Below, piece by piece: positions 22,680 to 56,563 of a stretch of 64,000 nucleotides of DNA (position 1 is its first letter; each line of letters starts with the position of its first letter). The notes below the pieces were generated by a model. It saw only the letters and a list, made by a program, of their open reading frames with translations. It was not told the origin of the DNA and ran no database searches. The position numbers and the translations under genes are program-made. This DNA is from an uncultured Clostridia bacterium (GTDB lineage Bacteria; Bacillota; Clostridia; UMGS1883), in contig CANRJP010000002.1 in assembly GCA_947630975.1 (NCBI GenBank), forward strand, positions 1,096 through 65,095, given 5' to 3'.

Positions 22680-23224
22680 GGGGCCGTAAAAAAATGGCGC
22701 AGAACGTTCAAGGGCATAAAGTCTTTATTTAAGGCAAATTGTAGAACGTTATATAATCGTTCAGTAAAAACAAAATAGTGAATTAATGTAGAAAATTCGC
22801 TCTAACGAGCGAATTTTTTCATTTTATGCCCTTGAACTACGAACGAAAATCACCCTCGGCGGCGTCGGGGCAAAGCCCGTCTATGCGACGACATTTTTTA
22901 CAAAAATGCCGTCGCGCGAGGACTTGCCCCTCCTTCCTCGCAAAAGGTCACGCGGCGCTCCGACTATTCGGGCGGATAAGCCGCCCTCATTACGCCTGCG
23001 CTTGCTACCAACCTTTTGCGAGTTTGATAGCACCACTCCCCACAAACAACAAAGTTGTTTGTGGGGAAAAGGAGGAGCAGCCAAACGAGCCAAACGGTGA
23101 CTTTTTTGCGAAGCATAAAAAGTCGCCGCAAGCGAAGGGAGGCTTGCGACGACGCCGTTCTGCACGATTTTTTCGACCGGCCCCGTGCCTCCATGTTACA
23201 GAGCGAGTTTTTTTTACAACCCCC
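22680..23224. mobile_element. ~530-bp TIR-bounded non-autonomous repeat element, copy 1
   Basis: TIRs GGGGCCGTAAAAAAA / TTTTTTTTACAACCCC. Internal perfect palindrome CCCCACAAACAAC-AAAG-TTGTTTGTGGGG. Nested IR GTTCAAGGGCATAAA / TTTATGCCCTTGAAC. Two more copies elsewhere in the window. Confidence 0.7.
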
Positions 23225-23300
23225 TTTTTTATCTGTCATTGTTACCGTAAATTTATGATTTTAAATCAGTATTATTATACACTCTTGACATTCATTTCGC
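23222..23300. repeat. 85-bp flank module, copy 2
   Basis: Aligns with 19193-19290. Confidence 0.5.
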
Positions 23301-23357
23301 AAATTGATATAATTTATATCATGATATTCCTCTTTTGAATAACCGGAAGTGATTTTT

Positions 23358-23564
23358 ATGGAAATACGGACTTTGCGGTATTTTCCGGCGGCGGCCGGAG
23401 AAGAAAACATGACCAGTGCGGCGCAAATTCTCCACGTCGAACCGAGACCGGAAACCGGTATATATCTTATCCGAAAAAAGCATCGGCCTTTCACGCCCGT
23501 AGCCAAAAGCTTACTTGAAAAGATCCGATCCGGCTTCGGCGGAAAGGAGGCGGGCCGGCCGTGA
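23358..23564 (+). pseudogene. LysR-family N-terminal HTH remnant (truncated, ~69 aa)
   Basis: MEIRTLRYF...ENMTSAAQILHV resembles the LysR HTH consensus (MELRHLRYF...NFTRAAE.LHVSQP). The co-inducer-binding domain is absent. Confidence 0.35.
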
Positions 23565-25279
23565 AATGGCTGTATGCTTATTTCAAGCCCTTTCGGGGCA
23601 GGATAGGGCTTGAACTTTTTATAAAGACCGTGGCCACCTTGATGGATCTTTGCATACCGTGGATACTGGGACACATAATCGATGTTGTCATACCTTCCCG
23701 CAGCATTGGCCTGATAGCGGTTTGGGGCACGCTGATGATAGTTTGTTCCATAGTCTGCGTGGCGGGCAACATTTCCGCCAACAGGCTGGCGGCCTCCGTT
23801 GCACGGGACACTACGCGGAATATCCGTCATGACCTTTTCGCGAGAATAATGTCGCTGTCCTCCGCCCGGACGGACAGCTTTACGGCGGCCTCGCTGGTAT
23901 CGCGGATAACCGACGATACCTACAACATCAACAACATGACCGGTCGGCTACTTCGGCTTGGCATACGGGCGCCCATACTTCTGGTGGGCGGAATGGCGAT
24001 AACGCTGTCTATGGACGTTCCTCTGGCGCTGGTCTGGATAGCGGTGCTGCCCGCGGCCATAGGTATATTCATAGCCGTATCCGTTCACGGCGTGCCCCTG
24101 TTTTCACGGCTGCAAAGCTCGGTTGACAAAATGGTGCAGGTGATAAGGGAAAACATTTCCGGCGTGCGGGTGATCAAGGCTCTGTCGCGCACCGATTACG
24201 AAAAACAGCGGTTTTCATGGGTGAACGACGAGGTGTCGGCCAATGAGGAAAAAGCGAACATCTCCATGGGTCTGACTAATCCGGCCATAAATATGCTGCT
24301 GAACATAGCTCTTTCAATGGTGATTTTCGTCGGAGCCTACCGCGTCAACGCCGGTAGGACGGGCGTTGGCACCATTGTGGCCTTTACCTCATATTTTGCG
24401 GTGATTTTGAACGCCGTGCTGGGCATAACCCGCATTTTCGTCACCGTGAGCCGTGCCGCGGCCTCGGCCAAGCGCGTGGGCAGCGTGCTGTACGACGAAG
24501 CGGATTTGCTTAAAGAGGAGTCCGACGAGACCGCCCGGGCCTTTATATGCTTCCGCGGCGTGGGCTTTTCTTATAACAAAAACAGAGAAAATCTCAGCGA
24601 TATCGACTTCGAGCTGAACAGGGGAGAGACCCTCGGCATTATCGGCCCCACCGGCTCGGGAAAAACCACTCTCATAAATCTGCTCATGCGGTTTTACGAC
24701 ACGGACAGGGGCGCGGTGCTTATCGGCGGCCGTGACGTGCGGACCTATGACAGCGGCGAGCTGCGGAGTAAGTTCGGCGTGGTGTTCCAGAACGACATTC
24801 TTTTCGCCGACAGCGTAAGGAACAATGTTGACTTTGGCCGCTCCCTGCCGGAGGAGGACATAAACCTCGCCCTCGAATGCGCTCAGGCCACGGACTTTGT
24901 GAACGGACTGCCCAAGGGCATAGACACGGTGCTCAACCCCAAGGGCAACGACCTCTCCGGCGGACAGAAGCAGCGGCTGCTTATCGCCAGAGCTCTGGCG
25001 TCGAAGCCGGAAATACTGATTTTGGACGACTCGTCCTCGGCTCTGGATTACAGGACCGACGCCGCTCTCCGTGAGGCGTTGAGGTCGAGCTACGCCGGCT
25101 CCACGGTGATAACCGTGGCCCAGCGGATAAGCTCGGTCAAGGATATGGACAAAATAATCTTTCTTGACAACGGAAGGATCGAGGGCCTCGGCACTCATGA
25201 GGAACTCATGAAAAACTGCGCAATGTACCGCGAGACCGCCGAGCTTCAGATGGGGAGGGATATAAATGCCGCTGAGTGA
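23561..25279 (+). CDS. ABC exporter permease/ATPase fusion (pair 2, subunit 1)
   Basis: GTG start. TM domain followed by Walker A (GPTGSGKTT), signature (LSGGQKQRLLIARAL), Walker B (ILILDDSSSALD). Confidence 0.85.
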   Translation: MKWLYAYFKPFRGRIGLELFIKTVATLMDLCIPWILGHIIDVVIPSRSIGLIAVWGTLMIVCSIVCVAGNISANRLAASVARDTTRNIRHDLFARIMSLSSARTDSFTAASLVSRITDDTYNINNMTGRLLRLGIRAPILLVGGMAITLSMDVPLALVWIAVLPAAIGIFIAVSVHGVPLFSRLQSSVDKMVQVIRENISGVRVIKALSRTDYEKQRFSWVNDEVSANEEKANISMGLTNPAINMLLNIALSMVIFVGAYRVNAGRTGVGTIVAFTSYFAVILNAVLGITRIFVTVSRAAASAKRVGSVLYDEADLLKEESDETARAFICFRGVGFSYNKNRENLSDIDFELNRGETLGIIGPTGSGKTTLINLLMRFYDTDRGAVLIGGRDVRTYDSGELRSKFGVVFQNDILFADSVRNNVDFGRSLPEEDINLALECAQATDFVNGLPKGIDTVLNPKGNDLSGGQKQRLLIARALASKPEILILDDSSSALDYRTDAALREALRSSYAGSTVITVAQRISSVKDMDKIIFLDNGRIEGLGTHEELMKNCAMYRETAELQMGRDINAAE

Positions 25280-27029
25280 CAAAACCGAAAGGCCGAAGGA
25301 TATAAGGTATGTGCTGAAACGGCTCTGGTCCTATCTCATGAAGTACAGGCTCTGGCTGTTGGCGGCGCTGGGGCTGAACGCCCTGTCCAACATTTTCAAC
25401 CTGATCGGGCCGGTGCTCTCCGGCTCGGCCATCGACGCCATAAAGCCCGACGGAGGCACGGACTTTGCCGCCGTGGGAAGATACGTGGCCCTGATGATAG
25501 TTTTTTACATACTTTCCTCCCTGCTGTCATATCTTCTTTCGGTGCTGATGATCCATCTGGGACGGAAGATAACCTACGCCATGCGTCAGGACGCCTTTGA
25601 CTCCCTGGCCTCGCTGCCGGTGAACTATTTTGACCGGAGCTACGCCGGAAGTATAATCAGCAAGCTCTCCTACGACATCGACACGGTGAACACCTCCCTT
25701 TCCTCCGATTTGATACAGATCTTTACCAGCGCGATAACCATCGTCGGCGCCTTCGTTATGATGCTTGCCATAGCGCCGGTCATGGTGGCGGTGTTCGCCG
25801 TCACGATTCCGCTCTCCGTTGCGGTCACGGGCTTTATCACAAAAAAGGTGCACCCGCTGTTTAAAAGGCGCTCGGCGGCGCTGGGCGAGCTGAACGGCTA
25901 CGCCGAGGAAATGATAACCGGACAAAAGACCGTTCGGGCCTACTGCGCCGAGGAGGAAATGACAGGCCGCTTCGACGTGAGAAATGAGGAGGCCTGCCGC
26001 TCGTTCTATAACGCCGAATACTACGGCAGTATGTCCGGCCCGTCGATGAACTTTATAAACAACCTTTCCCTTTCGTTTATAAGCATTTTCGGCGCGGTGC
26101 TCTATATGCTGGGCAGGATAAGCATAGGCAAAATTTCATCATTCGTCCTTTATTCCCGCAAGTTTGCCGGCCCCATCAACGAGGTAGCCAACATCATCAA
26201 CGAGCTTCAGTCCGCCTGTGCCGCGGCGGAGCGTGTGTTCCGGCTCATCGACGAGGAAAAGGAGGACGCCAATGACGCCGTTGATAAGGACGCGTCCGTA
26301 AGCCGTACCGACGTGAGCATCGACCGGGTGCGTTTCGGTTACGCTCCCGACAGGCCGGTGATACACGACCTGAACCTTGAGGTGGGAGAGGGAGCCATGA
26401 TAGCTATCACCGGCCCCACCGGCGCGGGCAAGACAACCGTAATCAACCTGCTCATGCGGTTTTACGACCCGGACAGCGGCACAATATCCGTGGGCGGTGT
26501 GGATATCCGCTCCGTCAGCCGTGACGATTTGCGCCGGCTCTACGCCATGGTGCTTCAGGACACATGGCTGTTCAACGGCACCGTTTACGAAAATATAGCC
26601 TACGGACGGCCCGGAGCCACGGCCGATGAGGTGGAGGCCGCCGCAAGGTCGGCCATGATACACGAGTTTATCATTCGCCTGCCCCAAGGCTACAACACCG
26701 TTCTCAGCGAAAACGGGATAAATATTTCAAAGGGGCAGAAGCAGCTCCTCACCATAGCGCGGGCCATGCTTTGCGACGCGAAAATGCTGATTTTGGACGA
26801 GGCCACCTCAAACGTGGATACCCGAACGGAAAAATACATTTATACCGCCATGCGCAAGCTTATGAGGGACAAGACCTGCTTCGTCATAGCCCATCGGCTG
26901 TCCACAATTCAGAACGCCGACAAAATACTCGTAATAAACAACGGCGACATCACCGAGACCGGCACCCATGACGAGCTCATGGCGAAGCGGGGCGACTATT
27001 ACAGGATGTATATGTCGCAGTACAAATAG
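25266..27029 (+). CDS. ABC exporter permease/ATPase fusion (pair 2, subunit 2)
   Basis: Walker A (GPTGAGKTT), signature (ISKGQKQLLTIARAM), Walker B (MLILDEATSNVD). Overlaps the previous gene. Confidence 0.85.
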   Translation: MPLSDKTERPKDIRYVLKRLWSYLMKYRLWLLAALGLNALSNIFNLIGPVLSGSAIDAIKPDGGTDFAAVGRYVALMIVFYILSSLLSYLLSVLMIHLGRKITYAMRQDAFDSLASLPVNYFDRSYAGSIISKLSYDIDTVNTSLSSDLIQIFTSAITIVGAFVMMLAIAPVMVAVFAVTIPLSVAVTGFITKKVHPLFKRRSAALGELNGYAEEMITGQKTVRAYCAEEEMTGRFDVRNEEACRSFYNAEYYGSMSGPSMNFINNLSLSFISIFGAVLYMLGRISIGKISSFVLYSRKFAGPINEVANIINELQSACAAAERVFRLIDEEKEDANDAVDKDASVSRTDVSIDRVRFGYAPDRPVIHDLNLEVGEGAMIAITGPTGAGKTTVINLLMRFYDPDSGTISVGGVDIRSVSRDDLRRLYAMVLQDTWLFNGTVYENIAYGRPGATADEVEAAARSAMIHEFIIRLPQGYNTVLSENGINISKGQKQLLTIARAMLCDAKMLILDEATSNVDTRTEKYIYTAMRKLMRDKTCFVIAHRLSTIQNADKILVINNGDITETGTHDELMAKRGDYYRMYMSQYK

Positions 27030-27038
27030 GAGGAAATT

Positions 27039-27849: not shown

Positions 27850-27860
27850 CCCGAAATATA

Positions 27861-27889
27861 TTGACTAAAACGGTGAAAAGTGGTATAAT
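27861..27889 (+). promoter_or_regulatory. consensus promoter TTGACT-17-TATAAT
   Basis: Hexamers read directly from the sequence, ~40 nt upstream of the HD-GYP gene. Confidence 0.5.
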
Positions 27890-27928
27890 AAACAGACGTA
27901 AGCATATATAATGTGAGGTGTGGGAGTT

Positions 27929-28609: not shown

Positions 28610-28625
28610 GAAAGGTTGGTAAAAT

Positions 28626-29240: not shown

Positions 29241-29244
29241 AATT

Positions 29245-30612: not shown

Positions 30613-30636
30613 TGTAAGCAAGGAGGGAAACTTCCG

Positions 30637-31674
30637 TTGAAAATAGAGGAAATTCTTGAAAAACTGGACGCCCCCTTGGGCGTCAGCGGCAGTGAGGAGG
30701 CCGTCGGGAGCGCGGTCAAGGACTTGCTGGCACCCTGCTGCCAGACCGTGACCGAGGACGTTTTAGGCAACGTAACGGGCTGGTACCGCTGCGGTCGGGA
30801 AAACGCTCCCGTAGTGATGATAGAGGCCCATCAGGACGAGCTGGGCCTCATGGTAAGCGGCATAACCGACGAGGGGAGCCTGCTCTTCTGCGAGATAGGC
30901 GGCTTTGACCCCAAGACCCTTCCCGGAACCGAGGTCACCGTCCACTGCGAGACCGGGAACTATTTTGGCGTGATAGGCGCCAAGCCTCCCCATCTGGTGA
31001 AGGATGCGGCCAAGGCCCTTGCCGTTGAAAACATGGCCGTGGACATCGGCTTTAAAAAGGAGCAAACCGAAAAAATCGTTCGGGTGGGGGACATAATCAC
31101 CCTCAACACCGGCTATACAAAGCTGGCGGGCTCCGCCGTCGCCGGACGCTGCATCGATGACCGGGGCGGCCTAGCGGCGGTGATACGCACCATGGAGCTC
31201 ATACAGAAATACCGGCTGTCCTGCGACGTGGCGGCCGTGGCCACGGTTCAGGAGGAGCTGGGCCTTCGCGGGGCGAGGACGGCTGCGGCCCAGCTTGTGC
31301 CCGACGCCGCCATCGCCGTAGATGTCTGCCACGGCACAAGCCCCGGCGTCAGCGACAACGCCTTCCCCTTGGGCAAAGGCCCCGTCGTCAGCGTTGGCCC
31401 CAACCTCCATCCGAAGCTGACCCGCCAGCTCCTCGACCGGGCAAAGGAAGCCGGCATCGAGGTTCAGATAGACGTGGACAGCGGCGACACCGGCACCGAC
31501 GCCTGGGAAATACAGGTGGCCGGGGCGGGAGTCCCCACGGCCCTGCTCTCCATACCTCTGCGCTATATGCACGCCAATTACGAGGTGGGGGACAGCCGCG
31601 ACATTGAAAATACGGCCCGGCTCATGGCGGCCTGGCTTTTGAGCTACAAAGGCGGTGACGATCTGTGCTTCTGA
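30637..31674 (+). CDS. M42 family metallopeptidase (paralog 1)
   Basis: TTG start after AGGAGGG. Conserved HxDExG-type and ...VQEEVGLRGA motifs of the M42/FrvX family. Confidence 0.8.
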   Translation: MKIEEILEKLDAPLGVSGSEEAVGSAVKDLLAPCCQTVTEDVLGNVTGWYRCGRENAPVVMIEAHQDELGLMVSGITDEGSLLFCEIGGFDPKTLPGTEVTVHCETGNYFGVIGAKPPHLVKDAAKALAVENMAVDIGFKKEQTEKIVRVGDIITLNTGYTKLAGSAVAGRCIDDRGGLAAVIRTMELIQKYRLSCDVAAVATVQEELGLRGARTAAAQLVPDAAIAVDVCHGTSPGVSDNAFPLGKGPVVSVGPNLHPKLTRQLLDRAKEAGIEVQIDVDSGDTGTDAWEIQVAGAGVPTALLSIPLRYMHANYEVGDSRDIENTARLMAAWLLSYKGGDDLCF

Positions 31675-32672
31675 AAGAACTGTGCCAACGCTCCGGCCCC
31701 TCCGGTTGGGAGGACGACATAAGGAGCTTTATCCTCGGTCAAATAAAGGCCGACGAGATAACCGTGGACACCATGGGCAACATCATCGCCCATAAGCTCG
31801 GCGGCGGCAAAAAGGTGATGGTGGCCGCCCACATGGACGAGGTGGGCTTCATCGTCAGCGGCTTCACCGACGAGGGCTTTGTGAGGTTCAAAACCGTCGG
31901 CGGCATACTCACCACCGTTCTTGTGAGCAAAAAGGTGTTGCTGGGCGAAAAAAAGGTGCCCGGCATAATCAGCGCCAAGGCCGTACACCTACAAAAGCGT
32001 GAGGAACGGGAAAAGCTCATTCCCATGAGTGAGCTTTATATCGACATCGGCGCGAAGAATAAGGAGGAGGCCCAAAACCTTCTGAATTTGGGCGACTACG
32101 GAGTTTTCGCCGGCGAGTACACGGAGTTCGGCGATGGCCTTGTGAAGAGCAAGGCCCTTGACGACCGGGTGGGCTGCGCCGCCCTCATCGAGCTGATGAA
32201 AAACGACTACGCCAACGATATGTACTTTGTGTTCACCGTTCAGGAGGAGGTCGGCCTTCGCGGCGCTATCATAGCGGCCAACCGCATCAGACCCGACTAC
32301 GCCCTTGTGATCGAGGGCACCACCTGCAGCGACGTTTACGGCACAAAGCCCCACGAAACCGTCACCAATCTTGGCGGCGGAGCGGTCATGACCGCCATGG
32401 ACAGGGCCGCCGTCAGCGACCGGCGCTATTTTGAGATGATAAAAAGTCTGGCGGAAAGGGAAAACATTCCCCTTCAAATCAAGCGCACAAGCAGCGGCGG
32501 CACCGACGCCGGCAGCATCCAGCGCAGCGGCGGCGGAGTAAAGACGGCGGTTCTCGCCGTGCCCTGCCGCTATATCCATTCCCCCGTCAGCGTAATGAGC
32601 AAAAGCGACTTTGACAGCGTCTGCCGCCTCAGCGCGGCGGTACTGAAGGAGCTGGAAAGGAGAGAACTGTAA
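31665..32672 (+). CDS. M42 family metallopeptidase (paralog 2)
   Basis: AAHMDEVGF and FTVQEEVGLRGA motifs. Confidence 0.8.
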   Translation: MLLKELCQRSGPSGWEDDIRSFILGQIKADEITVDTMGNIIAHKLGGGKKVMVAAHMDEVGFIVSGFTDEGFVRFKTVGGILTTVLVSKKVLLGEKKVPGIISAKAVHLQKREEREKLIPMSELYIDIGAKNKEEAQNLLNLGDYGVFAGEYTEFGDGLVKSKALDDRVGCAALIELMKNDYANDMYFVFTVQEEVGLRGAIIAANRIRPDYALVIEGTTCSDVYGTKPHETVTNLGGGAVMTAMDRAAVSDRRYFEMIKSLAERENIPLQIKRTSSGGTDAGSIQRSGGGVKTAVLAVPCRYIHSPVSVMSKSDFDSVCRLSAAVLKELERREL

Positions 32673-33646
32673 TGGAGCTTTTGAAAAAACTCAACGAGTG
32701 TTGGTCTCCCTCGGGCCGTGAGGACAGCATAAGGAACCTCATTGCCGCCGAGCTGGAGCCCTATGTCACCGACGTATACACCGACCCCATGGGCAACCTC
32801 ATCTGCCGCAAAAAGGGCAACGGACGGCGGCTCATGTTCGCCGCCCACATGGACGAGATAGGCTTCATGGTGACGAACATCGACGACAGCGGCTTCCTCC
32901 GTTTCACCAACGTGGGCGGCATCTCGGCCCACAACTGCGTAAATCGCGGCGTTGTCTTTGAAAACGGCACGGCGGGCGTTATTTCATACGAAAAAACCGT
33001 CAAGGATCTCAACCTTGACAAAATGTATATCGACATCGGCGCGGCTGACAGGGCCGAGGCCGAGAGCAAGGTCAGCGTGGGCGATATGGCCTGCTGCAAC
33101 GAGGGCTTCACCCTTATGGGTTCTTGCGCCGCTGCCAAATCCATGGACGACCGCGTGGGCTGCTACGCCCTGATAAAGGCCGTTCAGCGGGCGGCCTCCA
33201 ACAAAAACGACATTTACGCCGTGTTCACCGTTCAGGAGGAGCTGGGCCTTCGTGGAGCCAAAACCGCCTCCTTCAACGTGGAGCCCGACCTTGGCATAGC
33301 CATCGACGTTTCCATGGTGGGCGACACTCCCGAAAGCGCCAGGCGCAGCCTCGCGCTGGGCAAGGGCCCGGGCATAAAGCTGAAGGACGCCTCCTTTATA
33401 ATACACCCGAAGGCCCGTGAGTTCATGCTTCAGGCCGCCCGTGCGGCGGAAATACCCTTCCAGCTTGAGGCGGCGGCCTACGGCGGCACCGACGCGGGAG
33501 CCATACACCTCAACGGCGGCGGAGTTCCGGCGGGAACGGTTTCGATACCCACCCGCTACATCCATTCGCCCCGAGAGGTGGTCAATCTCGCCGACGTGGA
33601 AAATACCGTCAAACTTGTGACAAAAATGATAGAAGTTGGTATATGA
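32672..33646 (+). CDS. M42 family metallopeptidase (paralog 3)
   Basis: AAHMDEIGF and FTVQEELGLRGA motifs. Confidence 0.8.
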   Translation: MELLKKLNECWSPSGREDSIRNLIAAELEPYVTDVYTDPMGNLICRKKGNGRRLMFAAHMDEIGFMVTNIDDSGFLRFTNVGGISAHNCVNRGVVFENGTAGVISYEKTVKDLNLDKMYIDIGAADRAEAESKVSVGDMACCNEGFTLMGSCAAAKSMDDRVGCYALIKAVQRAASNKNDIYAVFTVQEELGLRGAKTASFNVEPDLGIAIDVSMVGDTPESARRSLALGKGPGIKLKDASFIIHPKAREFMLQAARAAEIPFQLEAAAYGGTDAGAIHLNGGGVPAGTVSIPTRYIHSPREVVNLADVENTVKLVTKMIEVGI

Positions 33647-33647
33647 T

Positions 33648-36429: not shown

Positions 36430-37965
36430 TTATTGCAAATCCCTTTGCCGCCGGATAACGCTCCCGAACCATTTTATATCGCTCTTGCCTATTACCCGAA
36501 GCAAGTACAGCAGGAGGGTGTAAACCGCCGCGGCGCAGACAATTCCCGCGACCGCTCCCACAGGAAGATTTAGGGCGAACAGTCCGGAAACAGCCGACGC
36601 GAAAATTATTCTGATGAGGTCAAAAAGCCCCACGTCCACGTCGGCCACTCTCAGCAGCCGGTTGAAGCTGAGGAGAAAGTTGAAGCACTCGCACACGTAA
36701 ATGCTGACGCCGTAGCCGGTTATGGCGTAGCGGGGAATGAGTATGTACAGCAGCACCACATTCAGCGTGGCCTCGGCGATATTTATCACCATGGCTTTCA
36801 TGTGCTGTCCGAGACCCTTCAGACAGCCGTCGGTCACCATATCGCAGTACATTACGGGCACGAGGGGCGCAAAACAGCGGACATAGCGCCCTACCTCCGG
36901 ACTTTTGTAAATTGCGGTTCCGAGTTCCTCACCGAAAAAATACATAAGGCCGGACACGCAAACCGAAAATGTCAGGCCGATTTTTATGACCCTTGTCGTC
37001 ATATAGTCGATGCCCTTTTGCCCGCCCTCGCTTTGGGCCGCCGTAAGCCGGGGAATTATCAGCTCGGCCAGAGCGGTGAGCAGCGCCGAAGGAAAAAGCA
37101 GCATGGGGAAGGCCATTCCGTGAATGGATCCGTAGGCCGCGAAGGCCGAATTGAAGTCGGCGCCCGAACGCTGGAGGCCCTTGGGTATGAGAATGTGGCC
37201 GAGGGAGTTTAGACCCGTCCTCATATAGGAGCTGACGGCGATCGGCATAGCCGTGCCGAAAAGCCGCCTTAAATACGGCGCTTTTTGGGAGCGGGCGGGA
37301 ATATGCCGTATGTCCGCCAGATACAGCACCGTCAACGCGGCGCAGCTTACCGCCTCGCCGAGCGCGGCCGCCGCCGCAAGAGCGGCGCAGGTATCTCCTA
37401 TCCCGCCGCCAAAGGCGCTCAGCAGTATTACGGTGACGAATATCCGGCTGAGCTGTTCGAGGATGTTGACGCTGACGGAGCGCATTACCCGCTCAACACC
37501 GGTGAAATATCCGCCGAATACCGCCGAGACGGAGATGAACGGCAGACTGAACGCCAGTGTTTCAAGGGCTTTTCGGCAGCTTTTTTCCCCTATCCACGTT
37601 GAGCTTATAAAGCCGGAGCCGAAGTACAGACAGGCTCCGGCGGCAAGGCCGAAGCACAGCGAATAAACCAAGGCGGTGCGCACCGTCCGGCGGACGCTGC
37701 CGTTTTCGGCCAGAGCCGCTGCGGTGAGACGGGTGACCGAAAATCGTATGCCGCCGGTGGCGAGAGTAACAAAGAGAGTGTAGACCGACATTATAAGGGA
37801 ATATACTCCCAAGGCCGAAGCGCCGATTTTACCCGCCAGATACACCTGAAATATGAGGCCGACTCCGCGCATGACGAGGGACGCCGCCGTGAGCAGAAGT
37901 GTGTTTACAAAAATTTTGTGGGCATTTTTGTTCATGGAAAAACTCCCTAAAAGGTATTTGTACAA
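36430..37965 (-). CDS. MOP-superfamily polysaccharide/lipid-II flippase-like protein (SpoVB / MurJ-Wzx-like)
   Basis: ~14 predicted TM segments. N-terminus resembles the SpoVB pattern (..LLLTAASLVMRGVGLIFQVYLAGKIGASALGVYSL..). Confidence 0.7.
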   Translation of the reverse strand: MYKYLLGSFSMNKNAHKIFVNTLLLTAASLVMRGVGLIFQVYLAGKIGASALGVYSLIMSVYTLFVTLATGGIRFSVTRLTAAALAENGSVRRTVRTALVYSLCFGLAAGACLYFGSGFISSTWIGEKSCRKALETLAFSLPFISVSAVFGGYFTGVERVMRSVSVNILEQLSRIFVTVILLSAFGGGIGDTCAALAAAAALGEAVSCAALTVLYLADIRHIPARSQKAPYLRRLFGTAMPIAVSSYMRTGLNSLGHILIPKGLQRSGADFNSAFAAYGSIHGMAFPMLLFPSALLTALAELIIPRLTAAQSEGGQKGIDYMTTRVIKIGLTFSVCVSGLMYFFGEELGTAIYKSPEVGRYVRCFAPLVPVMYCDMVTDGCLKGLGQHMKAMVINIAEATLNVVLLYILIPRYAITGYGVSIYVCECFNFLLSFNRLLRVADVDVGLFDLIRIIFASAVSGLFALNLPVGAVAGIVCAAAVYTLLLYLLRVIGKSDIKWFGSVIRRQRDLQ

Positions 37966-38045: not shown

Positions 38046-38552
38046 GGGGCTGTAAAAAAATCGTGCAGAACGGCGTCGTCGCAAGCCTTCCTTCGCTTGC
38101 GGCGACTTTTTATGCTTCGCAAAAAAGTCACCGTTTGGCTCGTTCGGCTGCTCCTCCTTTTCCCCACAAACAACAAAGTTGTTTGTGGGGAGTGGTGCTG
38201 TCAAACTCGCAAAAGGTTTGTAGCAAGCGCAGGCGTAATGAGGGCGGCTTATCCGCCCGAATAGCCGGAGCGCCGCGTGACCTTTTGCGAAGAAGGAGGG
38301 GCAAGCTCTCGTGCGACGGCATTTTTGTAAAAAAATGTGGTCGCATAGACGGGCTTTGCCCCGACGCCGCCGAGCGGTGATTTTCGTTCGTAGTTCAGGG
38401 CATAATTTAAAAAGAAAAACCGTCTTTTCGCAAGAAAAAGGCGGTTTTTCCACATCAATTCACAGCTTTGTTTCTTTTTCCGGATTTATCAACACATAAA
38501 TTTACCTTAAGGCTTTTAGCCCTTGAACAATCTGCGCCATTTTTTCAGCCCC
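38046..38552. mobile_element. ~530-bp TIR-bounded repeat element, copy 2 (inverted; ~45-bp internal deletion)
   Basis: Reverse-complement match to 22680-23224. TIR GGGGCTGTAAAAAAA. Lacks the CTGACTACATAATCTGGAGGCACGGGGGCCGGTCGAAA segment present in copies 1 and 3. Confidence 0.7.
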
Positions 38553-38554
38553 TA

Positions 38555-40612
38555 TTACTGTTCCAAAAACTTCTCCCGGAGGGCCTTGCGTTCTTCGTCG
38601 GTCAAACCGAGCCGCTCCCTTAAGAAATTGTCCATCGAGCCGTATTTTTTCTTTACGCTGTCAAAAGCCACACTGAGGTATTTTTCGTCCACTCCTTTTG
38701 TCGCGGCTAAAAGCTCGACGGTTTCATCGCCGTCAAGGCCGTTCGCCTCGGCGACCGTTCGCATCTCGGCTATGTCGGACGCGTAAGCCTCGTTGGAAAT
38801 CAGGTAGTCGCGCATAACCATATCTTCGTCCGCTCCCAGGGCGATCAGCAGCAGAGCCGACGCAATGCCCGCCCTGTCCTTCCCTTGGGCGCTGTGAAAG
38901 ATTATTGGCTCTCCTTCTTCCGCCGCAAGCAAGACGTCAAAAAATAGGGAGTACTCCGCCTGAACGTGATCGACCAAAAGCAGCCTTTCGTATCTTTCGG
39001 TGATTATGCCGTTCCGCGCGTAGGCTATCGACCTCTTTAAATTGTCCCCGTCCTCGGGTTCGATTTCGCCGAGCTTTATTTCGGTCTCATCGCTGAACAT
39101 TTTTCCCCCGTAGACCGGTATGGAAATATATTGCGCTCCGTTTATTCCGACGTCGGGATTTTCCGCTTTTTCCGCCTCTGTACGGAAATCAACGATGTAT
39201 TTTATACCGTATTGTTCGGCGAGGGTGTTCGCGTCCTTTGGCGACAGCCATGACAGCATACCGCTGCGGAAAAGTACATTTTCCTTTATTCTCCGTCCGT
39301 CTATGCAAGGATAGCCCCCAAGCTGGCGGGCGTTGTTGGCGGACATGATGTTTATTGCCTGGGTTTTCGCCGTATAATTTTCGGGGCGGGCGGCGGAATT
39401 TTGTATCGTTACCTCTTGAATATCGTTGTTCCAGCCCACATTTAAATTAAAGCTCTCCGCCACAAATCTTATTGGCAGCATGGTCTTTTCCCCGATTATG
39501 ACCGGAGCGGTATCAAGGACGTGCGGCTCCCCGTTAAGATAGGCCGTGGGATCGTCGATTTGCAGCACTACGGTGTTGCCGCCCCGGTTCAGCGTCACGG
39601 TTTGAGTCTCGCCGTCCCAGAGCACCTCGCCGCCGAGCTCCTCCACAACGGCCCGGACGGGGAGAAAGGTTCTGCCGTTTACAATGACGGGCGTTGTCCC
39701 GTCTGAGTCGATGGGCTTATCCTCTCCGTTCACCGTCATAATGGGATCGTTTATACGCAGCTTGATGTTCAGCGCCTTTTCGGCCTTTGCCTCGGAGGAA
39801 TAAGGATTTGACGCCCAAACGCGGACATAATCGACTTCAGTCCTGGCGGGCAGGGCGTTGATACCCGTGTCGGTTCCGCCGCCCGCCCAGGCGGACGACT
39901 CCATTGTCAGCAGCATTTTGCCGCCAAGGGGACATATGCCGCCGCCTTGAGAGCGCCAGGTCTCTTTGCCGTCCACATAAAAAATATAGTCTGTTTCGGT
40001 TCGCCAAAGACCGAAGGTATGAAATTCGCCGTCATAAATATCGAGATTGGAATGGGTGCGGCTATCCTTTTTTATGTCGTTCCCGTAGCCGTCCCAATGA
40101 AGCGCGTGGTTGCAGCACCCATCCTCACTGTTGATGCTTTCTATAATGTCTATCTCAATACCGTCGCTGCTGGTGCCGTCCACATTGAGAACGTCGCCCG
40201 CCATTATCCAGAAAGCTCCCCAAGTGCCCGGCGCCACAGGAAAGCGCACCGAGGCTTCATAGTATCCGTATCCGAAGGAAGCGCTGTCGTTTGTACAAAC
40301 GGCGCCCGAGTGGACGCGGTTTTCAGCCTCGTTCCACTCCGCGTCCAAAACCAGTTGACCGTTCCCGTTAAGATAGGAGAGGGAGTTGTCCCATATATCC
40401 ATGCCCTCACAGCGTATCATTTCCGGACAGCGCATCCATTTGTCCGGATCAAGCTCGCTTCCGTCGAAATTATCCTCAAAAATAAGGGGCGGAGCCGAAA
40501 TCTGAGCCTCCGGCAGCTCCTCCGCGGCACAGCTCCCGCTCACGGCTCCGAAAACAGTTGTTATAACCGCGACTAAACAAAATGCTTTTTTGCCAAAACA
40601 ATGTACCATCAA
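38555..40612 (-). CDS. secreted GH16 glycoside hydrolase fused to two copper-amine-oxidase-N-like domains and a C-terminal PTP-like (Y_phosphatase3) domain
   Basis: Signal peptide. GH16 catalytic motif EIDIIE. CuAO-N-like repeats (VNGRTFLPVRAVVEELGGEV / GEKTMLPIRFVAESFNLNV). PTP-like loop HSAQGKDRAG and DYLISN. Confidence 0.75.
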   Translation of the reverse strand: MMVHCFGKKAFCLVAVITTVFGAVSGSCAAEELPEAQISAPPLIFEDNFDGSELDPDKWMRCPEMIRCEGMDIWDNSLSYLNGNGQLVLDAEWNEAENRVHSGAVCTNDSASFGYGYYEASVRFPVAPGTWGAFWIMAGDVLNVDGTSSDGIEIDIIESINSEDGCCNHALHWDGYGNDIKKDSRTHSNLDIYDGEFHTFGLWRTETDYIFYVDGKETWRSQGGGICPLGGKMLLTMESSAWAGGGTDTGINALPARTEVDYVRVWASNPYSSEAKAEKALNIKLRINDPIMTVNGEDKPIDSDGTTPVIVNGRTFLPVRAVVEELGGEVLWDGETQTVTLNRGGNTVVLQIDDPTAYLNGEPHVLDTAPVIIGEKTMLPIRFVAESFNLNVGWNNDIQEVTIQNSAARPENYTAKTQAINIMSANNARQLGGYPCIDGRRIKENVLFRSGMLSWLSPKDANTLAEQYGIKYIVDFRTEAEKAENPDVGINGAQYISIPVYGGKMFSDETEIKLGEIEPEDGDNLKRSIAYARNGIITERYERLLLVDHVQAEYSLFFDVLLAAEEGEPIIFHSAQGKDRAGIASALLLIALGADEDMVMRDYLISNEAYASDIAEMRTVAEANGLDGDETVELLAATKGVDEKYLSVAFDSVKKKYGSMDNFLRERLGLTDEERKALREKFLEQ

Positions 40613-40808: not shown

Positions 40809-40844
40809 ATATGTGTATTATATGTGTATTATATGTGAAACTGA

Positions 40845-41060
40845 ATAGGCTGCGGGTGCCGGGCGTTCGCCAAGGCGAAAAGGGCCCGGTGAAAAGGGAA
40901 ACAGGTGAAAGTCCTGTACGAACTCGTCACTGTAATTACGGAGCCGGGAAGGAATATGTCACTGACCCTTCGGGGTTGGGAAGGCCCTTCCAAGCGATGA
41001 TGTATAAGCCAGGAGACCTGCCCGCCGCCGGTACGCGGAGCTTCGGCTCCAATGCCACGA
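40845..41060 (+). ncRNA. cobalamin (AdoCbl) riboswitch
   Basis: GGTGCCGGG...AAGGGAA.CAGGTGAAA.TCC...GTCACTG core and B12-box AAGCCAGGAGACCTGCC at 41007-41023. Sits 5' of a B12 transport/biosynthesis operon. Confidence 0.75.
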
Positions 41061-46553: not shown

Positions 46554-46557
46554 CGCC

Positions 46558-52090: not shown

Positions 52091-53412
52091 AGCGCGTCAT
52101 TATAGCCGGGACCCACAGCGGCTGCGGCAAGACCGCCGTTACCTGTGCCCTTTTGCAGGCGTTGGTAAATCGCGGCCTTTCACCGTCGGCCTTTAAGTGC
52201 GGGCCGGACTACATCGATCCGATGTTCCACAGCCGCGTGATCGGCCTTCCTTCCCGAAATCTCGACCCCTGGTTCTGCGATAGGGATATGATAAACTGTA
52301 TCTTGCACAGGCACGGCGGGGAAATTTCGGTCATCGAGGGCGTTATGGGCTTTTACGACGGCGTCGGAGAAGGGGCGTCCACCCATGCTTTGACCGTTGA
52401 GACGGGGACGCCCACGGTCATTGTCGCGGACTGCAAGGGAATGAGCCTCTCGATCGGCGCGGAGATAAAAGGCTTTCTCACCTTCCGCGAGCCAAACAAT
52501 ATCGTCGGCTTTATCTTCAACCGTCTGCCGGAAAGTCTTGTACCGACGGCAAAGAGCCTTTGCGAGGAGCTTGGCACAAGGTATCTCGGGCGGCTGCCGT
52601 ACAAAAAAGAGCTGTCGATAGAAAGCCGCCGCCTGGGACTTGTGACCGCCGGTGAAATAAGTGATATAAAGCAAAAATTGGAAGAACTGTCCGGCCTTGC
52701 CGAGGAGAATATTTTGATAGACGAAATTTTGAGCCTGGGCGCGGCGGCGGAGGACGTCCCTTTCGCGCCGCCGAGTGTGCCGAAGATAGACGGAAAACCG
52801 CTGAAAATCGCCGTGGCGAGGGACAGGGCGTTTTGCTTTTATTATGAGGACAACCTCGACCTGCTTCGGGAGATGGGCTGTGAGCTTGCGGAGTTTTCGC
52901 CTTTGAGCGACGGCTCCCTGCCCGAAAATATAGACGGCCTGCTCCTCGGCGGCGGCTATCCCGAGCTTTACGCGGCGGAGCTTGCGGCAAATATCCCCAT
53001 GCTTTCGGATATACGCGGTAAAATTTTGTGCGGCCTGCCGACCGTTGCGGAGTGCGGCGGCTTCATGTACCTATGCAAAAGTATCGGCGGTCACAGAACC
53101 GTCGGCGTTATCGACGCCGAAGCCCGCGACGCCGGTCGGCTCCGCCGTTTCGGATATGTCGAGCTGCGACCTCTCGGAGAAAGCCCTTTTGGAAATTGCG
53201 GCTTGAAAGGTCACGAGTTCCACTACTGGGACGTTTGCGACCCCGGCGGGGGATATGCCGCCGTGAGGGCGAGGGACGGCTCGGAATATTTCTGCGCCCA
53301 CACCGGCCCGGCTCTGTATGCGGGCTTTCCGCACCTTTATCTGTATTCAAATCCGACGGCGGCGGCAAATTTCGTAAAAAAATGTCAGGAGTACAAAAAT
53401 GCACAGACTTAA
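52087..53412 (+). CDS. cbiA: cobyrinate a,c-diamide synthase
   Basis: N-terminal P-loop GTHSGCGKT. C-terminal glutamine amidotransferase domain. Confidence 0.85.
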   Translation: MKRVIIAGTHSGCGKTAVTCALLQALVNRGLSPSAFKCGPDYIDPMFHSRVIGLPSRNLDPWFCDRDMINCILHRHGGEISVIEGVMGFYDGVGEGASTHALTVETGTPTVIVADCKGMSLSIGAEIKGFLTFREPNNIVGFIFNRLPESLVPTAKSLCEELGTRYLGRLPYKKELSIESRRLGLVTAGEISDIKQKLEELSGLAEENILIDEILSLGAAAEDVPFAPPSVPKIDGKPLKIAVARDRAFCFYYEDNLDLLREMGCELAEFSPLSDGSLPENIDGLLLGGGYPELYAAELAANIPMLSDIRGKILCGLPTVAECGGFMYLCKSIGGHRTVGVIDAEARDAGRLRRFGYVELRPLGESPFGNCGLKGHEFHYWDVCDPGGGYAAVRARDGSEYFCAHTGPALYAGFPHLYLYSNPTAAANFVKKCQEYKNAQT

Positions 53413-54442
53413 AAATATATCCCCGCCGGACGCTGCGGCCATGGAACGGGCAAGGGAACGGTGGAACTCCGTGGCGAAGCCTCTCCACAGTCTCGGACTT
53501 TTGGAGGACGCCGTGGTGAAGATCGCCGGAATAAAGGGTAGTGAATGCTTCGAACTGAAAAAGCGCGTCGCGGTCGTGATGTGCGCCGACAACGGTGTTG
53601 TGTCCGAGGGAGTTACCCAGACGGACAGCGCCGTCACCGCTGTTGTCGCGGCGGAAGCCGCCGCCGGGCGCTCGAGCGTGAACTGCCTTGCCGCCGTATA
53701 CGGAGCCGAGGTTTTAACCGTGGATATGGGTATGAAGGCGCCCGTCCCCGGCGTCCTTGACCGCCGCATTGCCGCCGGCACCGGCAATATCGCCGACGGC
53801 CCCGCAATGAGCAGGGACGAGGCCGAAAGGGCCGTCGCCGCCGGGATAGATATCATGCGCGGCCTGAAAGAAAACGGCACGGACATAGTCGCCGCCGGGG
53901 AGATGGGTATCGGCAACACTGCCACGTCGGCCGCCGTGGCCTCGGCTTTGCTGAACCTCCCTCCCGAGCTGACTGTGGGGCGCGGCGCGGGTATAGACGG
54001 TGAGGGATTTAAGCGGAAAATTCACGCCGTCCGCCGTGCGCTGGAGATAAATCGGCCCGACCCGGACGACCCGATGGAAGTGCTCTCCAAGCTTGGCGGC
54101 TTTGATATTGCCGGAATGACGGGCCTTTTCCTGGGAGGAGCGGTTTACGGCACGCCGGTGATAATCGACGGCCTCATATCCTTGGCGGCAGCGGCGCTGG
54201 CGGTAAAAATAGCGCCGATGTCAAGGGAGTATATGCTGGCGTCCCATGCTTCAAAGGAACCGGCGGCAAAAACGCTGGCGGAAAGGCTTGGCCTGAGTCC
54301 GGTCATAACCGCCGGCCTCGCCCTCGGTGAGGGAACCGGCGCTTTGATGCTGCTGCCGCTGCTTGACGGGGCGCTGGCTGTATATAACGGTGCTCACCGC
54401 TTCGACGAGCTTCCGATGGAAAGGTATGTTGAACTATGCTGA
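53399..54442 (+). CDS. cobT: nicotinate-nucleotide--dimethylbenzimidazole phosphoribosyltransferase
   Basis: CobT family motifs (GEMGIGNTA). Confidence 0.85.
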   Translation: MHRLKNISPPDAAAMERARERWNSVAKPLHSLGLLEDAVVKIAGIKGSECFELKKRVAVVMCADNGVVSEGVTQTDSAVTAVVAAEAAAGRSSVNCLAAVYGAEVLTVDMGMKAPVPGVLDRRIAAGTGNIADGPAMSRDEAERAVAAGIDIMRGLKENGTDIVAAGEMGIGNTATSAAVASALLNLPPELTVGRGAGIDGEGFKRKIHAVRRALEINRPDPDDPMEVLSKLGGFDIAGMTGLFLGGAVYGTPVIIDGLISLAAAALAVKIAPMSREYMLASHASKEPAAKTLAERLGLSPVITAGLALGEGTGALMLLPLLDGALAVYNGAHRFDELPMERYVELC

Positions 54443-54960
54443 CTCTTATTACCGGCGGAAGTAAGTGCGGCAAATCCCGCATGGCCGAGACCCTGGCCGT
54501 GTCTTGCGGCCTGCCGCTTTACTATATCGCCACTATGGAGCCCTCGGGGCGGGAGGCGGAGATCCTGATAGGCCGCCATCGAAGGCAGCGCGAGGGCAAG
54601 GGCTTTGTCACGGTCGAGCGATATACCGATATTGGCGGCGTTTTCTTGCCCAGAGGCTGCTGTGCACTGTTGGAGGACGCGGGCAACCTTTTGGCAAACG
54701 AGATGTTTTCGGCCAAGGCTCCCGCCCCCGCGGAAAAGATAATTGCCGGAATAGAAAAGCTGAAAAAAACGGCCGCCCGACTCATAGTTGTGACAAATGA
54801 GGTTGGCCGCGACGGCCTGAACTATTCCGCCGAAACGAGGGAATATATCAGGCTGATGGGGGAGATAAACCGCCGCGCCGCCGAAATGGCGGACATGGTT
54901 ATCGAAGCCGTTTTCGGCATACCCGTGACGCTGAAAGGAGAACGCCCGGAATGCTTATAA
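54436..54960 (+). CDS. cobU: adenosylcobinamide kinase / adenosylcobinamide-phosphate guanylyltransferase
   Basis: MLTLITGGSKCGKS P-loop. 174 aa. Confidence 0.85.
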   Translation: MLTLITGGSKCGKSRMAETLAVSCGLPLYYIATMEPSGREAEILIGRHRRQREGKGFVTVERYTDIGGVFLPRGCCALLEDAGNLLANEMFSAKAPAPAEKIIAGIEKLKKTAARLIVVTNEVGRDGLNYSAETREYIRLMGEINRRAAEMADMVIEAVFGIPVTLKGERPECL

Positions 54961-55724
54961 AGTCAATGCTTTCCGCCTTCCTCATGTATTCCCGCATACC
55001 CGTGCCCCAAGTCGAGTGGAAAGACGTGAACCGCCGTTATTCTCTGTGCTTTTTCCCGCTGGTTGGGGCGTTCGTCGGAGGCGCGGAGCTTTTGTGGTTT
55101 TTGATGTACCGAGTTCTCGGCTTCAATTCCCTGCTGTTCGGGACCGGAAGTGCGGCGCTGCCCATTATTTTAACCGGCGGAATACATATGGACGGCTACT
55201 GCGACGTAAACGACGCGCTGGCAAGCTGCGGCACAAGGGAGAAAATGCTGAATATAATGAGTGACCCAAATATCGGCTCCTTCGCGGCCGTGAGGGCGGG
55301 GCTGTATCTGTTAATTCAGCTTGGCCTTTTCGCGCAAATAAAGACTTGGCCGATGATGGCGGTCTGCGCCTTGAGCTTTGTGCAGTCGAGGGCGCTGAGC
55401 GGCCTTGGAACGGTGCTGCTGAAGAGCGCGAAGGAGAGCGGCGCCCTGCAAAGCTTCCGCCGTCCGGCGGACAGGCGGGCGGTAATTGTGAGCGAACCGG
55501 CGGTTTTGCTGCTGACGCTGATTTTGGCGGCCCTTGCCGACCCGATATGCGGCGGCTGCGCCTTTGCCGCCGAGGCGGTCTGCTTTGTTTACTACCGCAA
55601 AATGTCATACAAAAAGTTCGGCGGCGTGACCGGCGATCTGGCGGGATATTTTTTGCAGATATGCGAGCTTGGAGCCGTGGGCGCGGCGGTTTTTGCGGAT
55701 TTAGTGAGGAGCGCGGTTTTATGA
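54951..55724 (+). CDS. cobS: adenosylcobinamide-GDP ribazoletransferase (cobalamin synthase)
   Basis: CobS polytopic membrane protein pattern. Confidence 0.85.
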   Translation: MLIKSMLSAFLMYSRIPVPQVEWKDVNRRYSLCFFPLVGAFVGGAELLWFLMYRVLGFNSLLFGTGSAALPIILTGGIHMDGYCDVNDALASCGTREKMLNIMSDPNIGSFAAVRAGLYLLIQLGLFAQIKTWPMMAVCALSFVQSRALSGLGTVLLKSAKESGALQSFRRPADRRAVIVSEPAVLLLTLILAALADPICGGCAFAAEAVCFVYYRKMSYKKFGGVTGDLAGYFLQICELGAVGAAVFADLVRSAVL

Positions 55725-56047
55725 GACTTATTGTGGGCGGGGCCCATCAGGGCAAGACCCGCTACGCGGAAACAAAATACGGCGGATGCGTGGGCGGCTT
55801 CCAAATCAAGATACAGGAATGGCTCAGGGTCGGTCTGGATCCTTTTGCCGAAACGGAAAAATTCCTTGCGGAGCATCCCGACGCCGTCATAGTTATGGAC
55901 GAGATAGGCTGCGGAATAGTGCCGATAGAAAAAGATGACCGCGCCTGGCGCGAGGCCGTGGGCCGGATCGGGTGCGCTCTCGCGGAAAAGGCCGAGACGG
56001 TGGAGCGTATTGTCTGCGGCATTCCGGTAAAAATCAAGGGGCTGTAA
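55721..56047 (+). CDS. short CobU-like paralog (108 aa) lacking the central region
   Basis: ATG overlaps the cobS stop (ATGA). N-terminus MRLIVGGAHQGKTRYAE and C-terminus GIPVKIKGL match the CobU ends. The stop codon lies inside the TIR of 530-bp element copy 3. Confidence 0.5.
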   Translation: MRLIVGGAHQGKTRYAETKYGGCVGGFQIKIQEWLRVGLDPFAETEKFLAEHPDAVIVMDEIGCGIVPIEKDDRAWREAVGRIGCALAEKAETVERIVCGIPVKIKGL

Positions 56048-56563
56048 AAAAACTGACTACATAATCTGGAGGCACGGGGGCCGGTCGAAAAAATCGTGCA
56101 GAACGGCGTCGTCACAAGCTCGGTATCGCTTGTTTCGATTTGAAAAATCGAAACGTGGCTCACCTCGCTGCTCCTCCTTTTCCCCACAAACAACTTTGTT
56201 GTTTGTGGGGAGTGGTGCTGTCAAACTCGCAAAAGGTTGATAGCAAGCGCAGGCGTAATGAGGGCGGCTTACCCGCCCGAATAGCCGGAGCGCCGCGTGA
56301 CCTTTTGCGAAGAAGGAGGGGCAAGCCCTCGTGCGACGGCATTTTTGCAAAAAAGTGTCGGAGCATAGACGGGCTTTGCCCCGACGCCACCGAGGGTGAT
56401 TTTCGTTCGTAGTTCAAGGGCATAAAAATGAGAAAATTCGTTATGGCGAATTTTCTACATTATGCAATTATTTTGTTTTTATTGACTGGTTATATAACAC
56501 TCAAATTTGCCTTAAATTAAGTCATTTAGCCCTTGAACGATCTGCGCCATTTTTTTACGGCCC
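56038..56563. mobile_element. ~530-bp TIR-bounded repeat element, copy 3 (inserted inside the cob operon)
   Basis: TIRs GGGGCTGTAAAAAAA / TTTTTTTACGGCCC. Same internal palindromes as copies 1 and 2. Confidence 0.7.

Follow-up and report, generated by a model that had tools for sequence, protein, structure and literature searches.

A probably MITE-like family of modular palindromic repeats with terminator-like hairpins in uncultured Clostridia

The DNA analyzed here, referred to below as the window, is a stretch of 64,000 nucleotides from an uncultured Clostridia bacterium (lineage UMGS1883; GenBank assembly GCA_947630975.1, contig CANRJP010000002.1, positions 1,096 to 65,095 of the forward strand) that encompasses three copies, A, B, and C, of a palindrome-rich repeat bounded by terminal inverted repeats (TIRs). 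Copy A is located after the gene for a 1101-aa surface protein. Copy B lies between the gene for a secreted phosphatase/GH16 protein and that for a SpoVB-like flippase, and starts 2 nt past the stop codon of the gene at 38555–40612. Copy C is antisense within a cob operon, about 15 kb downstream of the cobalamin riboswitch (40837–41039, + strand; RF00174, 122 bits) that heads this long cob/cbi operon. We consider these repeats to be members of a previously undescribed family of miniature transposable elements with inverted repeats (MITEs), that is, non-autonomous, TIR-bounded, modular palindromic elements that supply terminator hairpins, and assign to this reading a probability of roughly 0.65.

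Direct reading, a repeat finder, and a three-way alignment all place the copies, which are 507–545 bp long, at 22680–23224 (+), 38046–38552 (−), and 56038–56563 (−), in agreement with the initial annotation of this DNA. All three belong to the long subfamily of the repeat family described below, and their parts are as follows.

22680–23224, + strand: copy A, complete, long subfamily, with inner and outer right ends (direct reading, alignment, BLAST)
22680–22706, + strand: left TIR of copy A, GGGGCCGTAAAAAAATGGCGCAGAACG; the same TIR bounds units of 87–762 bp
22706–22837, + strand: AT-rich module of copy A, between GTTCAAGGGCATAAA (22706–22720) and TTTATGCCCTTGAAC (22823–22837)
22790–22829, + strand: T1 of copy A, an intrinsic-terminator-like hairpin with a 5' A-tract and a 3' T-tract (terminator scan)
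22833–22854, + strand: invariant junction 22-mer TGAACTACGAACGAAAATCACC, the probe for the genome scan
22855–23155, + strand: central hairpin block of the long subfamily in copy A, in place of the ~75-nt P3/P4 hairpins of the short form
23038–23066, no strand: perfect 13+3+13 palindrome of copy A, CCCCACAAACAAC-AAA-GTTGTTTGTGGGG
23122–23153, strand opposite to the element: terminator-like hairpin within the central block of copy A
23156–23184, + strand: inner right TIR of copy A, CGTTCTGCACGATTTTTTCGACCGGCCCC
23185–23224, + strand: 3' tail of copy A (GTGCCTCCATGTTACAGAGCGAG) and outer right end TTTTTTTTACAACCCCC
38046–38552, − strand: copy B, long subfamily, in which T1 is of another subtype, ~42 nt are deleted between the inner and outer right ends, and the loop of the palindrome is flipped
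38528–38552, − strand: left TIR of copy B
38414–38450, − strand: T1 hairpin of copy B, of the GAAAAACCGCCTTTT...AAAAGACGGTTTTTC subtype common to loci L004, L009, L013, and others
38162–38190, no strand: palindrome of copy B, with TTT loop
38046–38072, − strand: right TIR of copy B, 27 nt, a near-perfect mirror of the left TIR
38075–38106, + strand: terminator-like hairpin of copy B on the non-element strand (terminator scan)
56038–56563, − strand: copy C, long subfamily, antisense, between a cobU-like gene and cobC
56033–56037, + strand: ATCAA, left copy of the target duplicated at C
56564–56568, + strand: ATCAA, right copy of the target duplicated at C
56538–56563, − strand: left TIR of copy C
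56431–56456, − strand: T1 terminator-like hairpin of copy C
56182–56210, no strand: palindrome of copy C
56076–56105, − strand: inner right TIR of copy C
56038–56052, − strand: outer right end of copy C
56045–56047: TAA stop codon of the upstream gene, provided by the TIR of copy C

The three copies show a mean column identity of 85% in the three-way alignment (96% between A and B in the central 280 nt and 94% between A and C across 199 nt, with BLAST E-values among the copies of 1e-164 and 1e-172). They had been described as near-identical, which is overstated: the left, AT-rich module of B belongs to another subtype and is only about 70% identical. Other parts of the initial annotation are revised in a similar manner. 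The TIRs, originally put at 14–15 bp, are present but extend over about 25–27 bp (GGGGCYGTAAAAAAATSGYGCAGAACG); the palindrome is perfect but is spaced 13+3+13 rather than 13+4+13, and its loop, AAA in A and C, is TTT, that is, flipped, in B. The nested 15-bp arms GTTCAAGGGCATAAA/TTTATGCCCTTGAAC are exact in A only, B and C retaining 9–10 bp, with a 1-nt deletion in B. The internal deletion in B, estimated earlier at ~45 bp, comprises about 42 nt, and the right-end motif (TTTTTT..CNGCCCC) occurs on either side of it; right ends come in pairs in the canonical element, TTTTTTTGGACAGCCCC being the inner and TTTTTTTACAGCCCC the outer one, with a spacing of about 45 nt. The conclusion that the apparently open frames do not survive the indels holds: because 1-nt indels between the copies break every long frame, and a Pfam search with the ten open reading frames (ORFs) overlapping the copies matched no family, we consider the repeats to be non-coding.

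The invariant 22-mer TGAACTACGAACGAAAATCACC was used as a probe against one genome per bacterial species, a procedure that yields a lower bound on the total. It detected at least 85 stretches, among the matches listed all in nine species-level metagenome-assembled genomes (MAGs); of the nine carriers among these matches, eight are labeled uncultured Clostridia and one Oscillospiraceae, and seven have rabbit-gut “Lapin” names. Lapin-001__bin64 contains at least 25 loci and Lapin-023__bin38 at least 23, two other MAGs contain at least 12 each, and the remainder contain fewer; many matches are located at contig ends. Such multiplicity of dispersed copies, together with the three in the 64-kb window, is characteristic of MITEs. 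The initial annotation had suggested a BLAST search of related genomes for copy number; the 22-mer scan gives dozens of dispersed copies per genome in the nine MAG species, and the density of three copies in 64 kb that it had regarded as unusual is normal for the carrier clade. A 20-mer probe produced six matches in the JGI metagenome contigs and six in IMG/VR, all by chance and without further similarity, and neither the 72,556 plasmids nor the 50,697 phage records searched by BLAST with copy A contained a match. As far as these collections reach, the family is confined to a small clade of uncultured Clostridia, represented mostly by rabbit-gut-named MAGs.

The usual member of the family, as delineated by BLAST of the loci, is a short form of ~320 bp (about 300–335 bp), of which there are 46 complete copies at 73–93% identity. 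The window copies represent a long subfamily (~510–545 bp) with about 14 further members, so that the ~530-bp element recognized originally is real but is not the common form. The long and short forms have in common the left 182 nt and the right ~70 nt, and the long subfamily has ~290 nt of different hairpins in place of the central ~75 nt of the short form (hairpins P3 and P4 and the 3' strand of helix P2). Searching for TIRs that face each other reveals bounded units of 87, 132, about 250–340, 389, about 480–610, and 762 bp, and the ~27-bp TIR GGGGCYGTAAAAAAATSGYGCAGA is the sole part common to all of these 87–762 bp units; the two smallest, of 87 bp (L044:54–140) and 132 bp (L039:7373–7504), share with the rest only the TIR and one hairpin. 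In some copies, the left TIR and the AT-rich module are separated by an additional hairpin module. Thus, every size class has the common TIRs expected of a MITE family, and most members, at ~320 bp, fall within the range usual for these non-coding elements (about 50–500 bp), with the longest variants above the usual limit. An ancestral form lacking the AT-rich module was considered and rejected, the pattern AAAAATGGCGCAGAN{2,10}ACGAAAATCA having 0 matches in the metagenome contigs.

Two further loci contain hairpin arrays. At L019:6326–6760, an intergenic run of ~450 bp consists almost entirely of consecutive perfect hairpins of unrelated sequence and starts with two tandem partial TIRs, and at L060:80–782, central sub-modules of the long form (query 207–343 and 379–417) form a tandem array outside complete elements. 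It seems that, in these genomes, clusters of hairpin modules build up.

Insertion can be followed at the site of copy C. The 184-aa cobC-like histidine phosphatase encoded directly after this copy has homologs at 65–78% identity, and in all three homologous loci compared (L091, L094, and L095), cobS and a 107-aa cobU-like gene are followed, 4–10 nt on, by cobC, free of the element. L091 originates from Lapin-001__bin64, the carrier of at least 25 copies elsewhere. In the window, cobC and the cobU-like gene are separated by the 526-bp copy C, which is flanked on each side by ATCAA.

Empty site (L091): ...GTAAAAATCAAGGGGTGAAATTATG...
Filled site (window), with element boundaries marked by slashes: ...GTAAAAATCAA / GGGGCTGTAAAAAAA...TTTTTTTACGGCCC / ATCAAGGAGTGAAAATTATG...

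The three empty sites and the presence of ATCAA at both junctions identify copy C as an insertion that duplicated ATCAA; a duplication of 9 bp, ATCAAGGRG, would fit equally well, since the target goes on with GG(G/A)G. The presence/absence polymorphism typical of MITEs is accordingly observed at the cob site, which holds the element in the window but not in L091, L094, or L095. The same insertion is present in five separate ENA samples, the contigs of which break inside the repeat. Target-site duplications, which the initial annotation proposed to seek at empty sites, are thus found at copy C by comparison with three related genomes but are not general: of the other copies with clear ends, 23 of 26 are not flanked by any direct repeat of at least 4 bp, a frequency equal to the chance expectation. 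For copy B, upstream synteny is not conserved among the loci of SpoVB-like flippase homologs, and no empty site was obtained.

Three pairs of the loci share an orthologous site across species. The element is present in opposite orientations and different forms in L062 and L079; different internal hairpin subtypes follow the same left flank in L011 and L061; and a full element in L057 corresponds to only the terminal ~110 nt of a long-type element in L012 (7083–7736). The remnant in L012 adjoins a small two-gene insert that appears, by eye, toxin-antitoxin-like. In two pairs of loci (L011:2821 and L061:571; L002 and L016), interspecies synteny breaks exactly at element boundaries, and the repeats may be rearrangement breakpoints.

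One alternative is that there is no element at all and the copies are remnants of one large duplicated region or fragments of a known insertion sequence or group II intron, outcomes that the initial annotation had listed as contradicting its interpretation. Nothing beyond the repetition itself points in this direction. The sequences flanking A, B, and C are mutually unrelated, and therefore the repeats are not one segmental duplication; moreover, the at least 85 stretches are dispersed. Across the whole window, Rfam 15 at gathering thresholds identifies only the cobalamin riboswitch and nothing for the element, and a permissive Rfam search (E up to 10) with one long and one short copy retrieves weak chance matches only. 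The curated Rfam 15 models, including ROOL, GOLLD, OLE, HEARO/omega RNA, and group II intron, do not match the element, nor is there a Pfam, plasmid, or phage match in the searches described above. We regard this alternative as practically untenable.

The ends of the element and the duplication at copy C raise another possibility, that the family is derived from Tn3-family transposons, as are the TIME-type MITEs, and owes its movement to a Tn3-like transposase. GGGG stands at the start of the ends; as with TIMEs, whose AT-rich repeats measure 5–6 bp (PMC4133298), the only insertion that can be dated duplicated 5 AT-rich bp; and close to the right end, ACGAAAATCA is reminiscent of GAACGAAAACTCAC in the Tn3 inverted repeat. 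The sequence of the latter, verified in at least 5000 plasmids, is that of Tn3 itself, the sole Tn3-family inverted repeat compared; its local alignment to the element ends is not significant against shuffles (p = 0.21 for the right end and 0.97 for the left end), p = 0.013 being reached by a hypothetical reconstruction only. BLAST of the element end against the 72,556 plasmids gave chance matches only, the inner TAAG is missing, the spacing is different, and no Tn3 transposase is seen in the loci. Classification of the family as TIMEs on the basis of end similarity to the Tn3 inverted repeat (GGGG...TAAG) was therefore rejected, and a Tn3 origin appears very improbable.

The position of the elements relative to genes is highly non-random. 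Genes were called with a codon-usage gene caller trained on the loci, and 46 elements have a gene within 400 nt on both sides. The neighboring genes are convergent in 22 cases, co-directional in 24, and divergent in none, against a background of 14% convergent and 24% divergent among those intergenic regions of these loci that span at least 20 nt and contain no element (p = 6e-8 for convergent and 6e-6 for divergent placement). The nearest stop codon is mostly 0–30 nt from the element end and at times within the TIR. Orientation relative to transcription is unbiased: the co-directional elements include 12 located behind a co-oriented gene and 12 ahead of an opposite-oriented co-directional pair.

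This distribution, extragenic, at gene 3' ends, with 22 of the 46 sites convergent and none divergent, is that of REP and BIME palindromes, which invites the explanation that the repeats are REP/BIME- or REPIN-like sequences multiplied by a RAYT-type (HUH, Y1) transposase that acts on single-stranded hairpins without target duplication. The lack of target-site duplications around most copies, the nested imperfect palindromes with compensated stems, and the mosaic modular clusters, similar to BIMEs, are all compatible with such a mechanism. We nevertheless consider it improbable, given that the units are 10–20 times longer than a REP and are bounded by a long conventional TIR, that copy C has a direct duplication at its junctions, that there is no strand asymmetry, and that no RAYT or recurrent protein adjoins the copies in the loci clustered. 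Indeed, clustering of the proteins encoded by all neighbors across the at least 85 loci revealed no recurrent transposase or any other recurrent protein, and no pair of TIRs more than 762 bp apart was found in the family loci.

The AT-rich module of all 45 copies examined contains the hairpin T1 (GAAAA-stem-loop-stem-TTTTC followed by a T-rich tail), which occurs in at least seven compensated stem variants, with a mean dG of −19 kcal/mol for the enclosing 75-nt window. Because of the A-tract before the stem and the T-tract after it, T1 resembles a bidirectional intrinsic terminator. A consensus terminator scan called T1 on the strand of the element itself in A and C, and each of the three window copies also has a called site on the opposite strand; T1 of copy B is visible by eye and is not called by the scan. 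No sigma-70-type promoter was called inside the three window copies.

The folding potential of the repeats is pronounced. The fold of copy A has a z-score of −12 on either strand, and for the 46 short copies, RNAalifold predicts five helices, with 99.5% of the cells paired. Double-sided changes in these copies amount to 35 cells compared with 8.6 in column shuffles, none of 500 shuffles reaching 35, and the clearest covarying pairs belong to P4 (U-A 30 and C-G 15; G-C 35 and U-A 11). Among 12 copies of the long subfamily, 18 pairs show double changes, and one hairpin is present in five different sequences. The covariation analysis of the palindromes, also suggested originally, hence detects compensatory changes in the hairpins of both forms, with the two strands behaving alike.

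Such features could be taken as the signature of a multi-copy gene for a structured non-coding RNA (ncRNA), the second interpretation offered by the initial annotation: a large ornate RNA in which the “TIR” would be the closing helix and the conserved core would be functional. The very stable fold, the compensatory pairs in P4, P3, T1, and the long-form hairpins, with stems conserved and loops variable, and a core much more conserved than the AT-rich module all agree with this view. The strands, however, are equivalent in this respect: the consensus fold is −66.1 kcal/mol with 61 pairs for the bottom strand and −58.0 kcal/mol with 56 pairs for the top strand, when the predicted pairs of the two strands are pooled, there are 76 G-U cells on the top and 110 on the bottom strand, and only 16 of the 46 copies have their lower minimum free energy on the top strand. 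The equal folding of the two strands, the random orientation (12:12 relative to co-directional neighbors), the lack of an evident promoter in the window copies, the variants down to 87 bp with little more in common than the TIR, and the existence of a long form without the 3' strand of P2 and the P3/P4 hairpins jointly argue for a palindromic DNA element rather than a single RNA gene. With the lack of an Rfam match and the presence/absence polymorphism at copy C also taken into account, the ncRNA gene appears unlikely.

Two observations that could be taken to indicate an RNA or protein product were discarded. An excess of G-U over A-C cells (72 vs 8), together with a fixed U-G pair, suggested a strand-specific RNA, but with a structure predicted on the top strand to begin with, such a test is circular, and the signal is gone once both strands are treated symmetrically. 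A 33-codon small ORF in the short-form core has its frame broken by hairpin-loop indels.

The interpretation of the repeats as non-autonomous, MITE-like elements, the first of the two offered originally, is supported by the common ~27-bp TIR, the dispersal of copies in nine MAGs, the filled and empty states of the copy C site, and the lack of coding capacity. Under the mechanism that we propose, a transposase encoded elsewhere would recognize the ~27-bp TIRs and mobilize the elements in trans, placing them in AT-rich sites at stop codons or directly after them. The inserted element would be co-transcribed, in either orientation, as the 3' end of its neighbors, and its hairpins would act as terminators and/or 3'-end protectors. 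Because the hairpins would act at gene 3' ends, insertions would persist between convergent genes and be lost from promoter regions. The size variants could be produced by gain, loss, inversion, and exchange of modules between copies, via recombination or nested insertion; in particular, inversion between TIRs and deletion between the repeated end motifs may have given rise to the long form, the deletion in B, and its flipped loop.

Several points weigh against this interpretation. The terminator function is predicted from the sequence of the hairpins, and as a terminator, the intra-operon copy C should be polar, yet it is fixed in 5 samples. The at least 85 loci contain no autonomous partner or transposase. 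Target duplication is not general, the 5-bp value comes from one site, and it could equally be 9 bp. Finally, the internal core is about 95–100% identical compared with about 60–70% for the AT-rich module, and conservation of the core so far above that of the module is not predicted for a neutrally decaying selfish MITE; therefore, either selection on the hairpins or gene conversion between copies is needed.

With respect to the last point, one might speculate, although we are inclined to doubt it, that the near-invariant core (P2–P4, or the hairpin block of the long form) is a functional structure needed by the element or adopted by the host. It could be a portable bidirectional terminator/insulator cassette that is by now the only terminator for many convergent gene pairs, or else a structure, of RNA or single-stranded DNA, with a part in mobilizing the element itself. 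Either option would explain the compensatory upkeep of the hairpins and the ~95–100% identity of the core against the drifting rest (~60–70%).

As far as the resources searched show, the family has not been described previously, whereas the kind of element is well known and involves no new biology. The SPRITE, BOX, and RUP repeats of pneumococci are small, non-coding, dispersed intergenic repeats that fold stably (PMC3049150; PMC10969869). BOX is modular (A-Bn-C), the pneumococcal repeats insert into one another and cluster, and SPRITE contains a hairpin similar to a rho-independent terminator (PMC3049150, PMC10969869). With their Gram-positive host, modular organization, intergenic location, stable folds, and terminator-like hairpin, these repeats of Streptococcus pneumoniae are the closest analogs. 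The present family has no sequence relation to them, is larger (about 320 and up to 762 bp), and differs by its 27-bp TIR, its extremely conserved hairpin core, and its unrelated host clade. The Correia elements (CREE) of Neisseria have a TIR of ~26 bp, are present in hundreds of copies near gene ends, and are co-transcribed, their hairpins affecting termination and mRNA processing; they are 100–155 bp long, duplicate TA, and contain an IHF site and promoter elements. The family described here resembles them in comprising TIR-bounded MITEs with hairpins near gene ends, whereas the TA duplication, the IHF site, the promoter elements, and the 100–155 bp size are not seen.

Similarities to REP, BIME, and REPIN sequences include the location at 3' ends and convergent but not divergent sites, the mosaic palindromic clusters, and the stems kept by compensatory change; however, REPs are 20–40 nt long, lack a long TIR, and are tied to RAYT, in contrast to units of hundreds of bp with no RAYT in the DNA of the loci. 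TIMEs are similarly non-autonomous, have ends that start with GGGG and mosaic derivatives, and duplicate 5–6 AT-rich bp, compared with 5 bp, also readable as 9 bp, at the one site of copy C, but their inverted repeats are 38–40 bp long and clearly similar to those of the Tn3 family, whereas the ends of the present elements are not significantly so. The parallel to QMITE1 and QMITE2 of Coxiella burnetii lies in the wide size range of one family with conserved ends (PMC5896051, via PMC10969869). The QMITEs form a 39–400 bp size gradient, and truncated copies resemble REPs (PMC5896051, via PMC10969869); host and sequence are different, and a terminator module or conserved core comparable to those seen here is not described. 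Against this background, the present family is of interest for its size and its architecture of modular hairpins, for being very strictly placed at gene ends, and for a terminator-like module that has been maintained.

The window contains additional repeats and gene features. A second palindromic family of ~160 bp, with ends ATACTAATCC...GGATTAGTAT, is represented by an inverted pair 5.5 kb apart (455–615 and 6105–6270) that brackets four predicted genes (1137–5961), three of them on the + strand; one arm is 95% identical to L076:1–144. A third palindromic repeat, of ~180 bp (8597–8775), with ends TTAAGGCAATACCGCACA...TGTGCGGTATTACCTTAA, is 94% identical to L016:3564–3737 and immediately precedes a strong promoter-like AT-rich region as well as the gene at 8896. 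Four tandem 261-bp repeats (19755–20837; 70–92% identical) within the 1101-aa gene that copy A follows correspond to repeated CarboxypepD_reg/Ig-like domains of the surface protein. On the other side of copy A, a perfect TTGACA-17-TATAAT promoter is found at 23285–23313, and a 67-codon ORF (23358–23560, + strand; MEIRTLRYF...) resembles the N-terminus of a LysR-type regulator and has no Pfam match; situated between copy A and the ABC transporter genes, this ORF is possibly what remains of a gene. For the 501-aa product of 36430–37935 (− strand), an exact-match look-up listed no record, yet an identical 501-aa protein came up in the homology search. Finally, three tandem paralogous genes of ~330 aa each, with DNA stretches 62–71% identical, occupy 30637–33646.

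The repeat family explains assembly fragmentation in these gut Clostridia, in which contigs repeatedly end inside the element, and the element should be masked or modeled when such genomes are binned or annotated. Its insertion polymorphism provides a marker for strain tracking in the clade. For ncRNA discovery, the family is a warning that palindromic mobile DNA can yield strong fold z-scores and covariation, and that G-U strand-bias tests are circular unless both strands are handled alike. If the terminator reading is true, this would be a mobile element that hands ready-made bidirectional terminators to gene ends, and in each genome of an uncultured bacterial lineage, a transposon family would fix the limits of transcription for dozens of genes.

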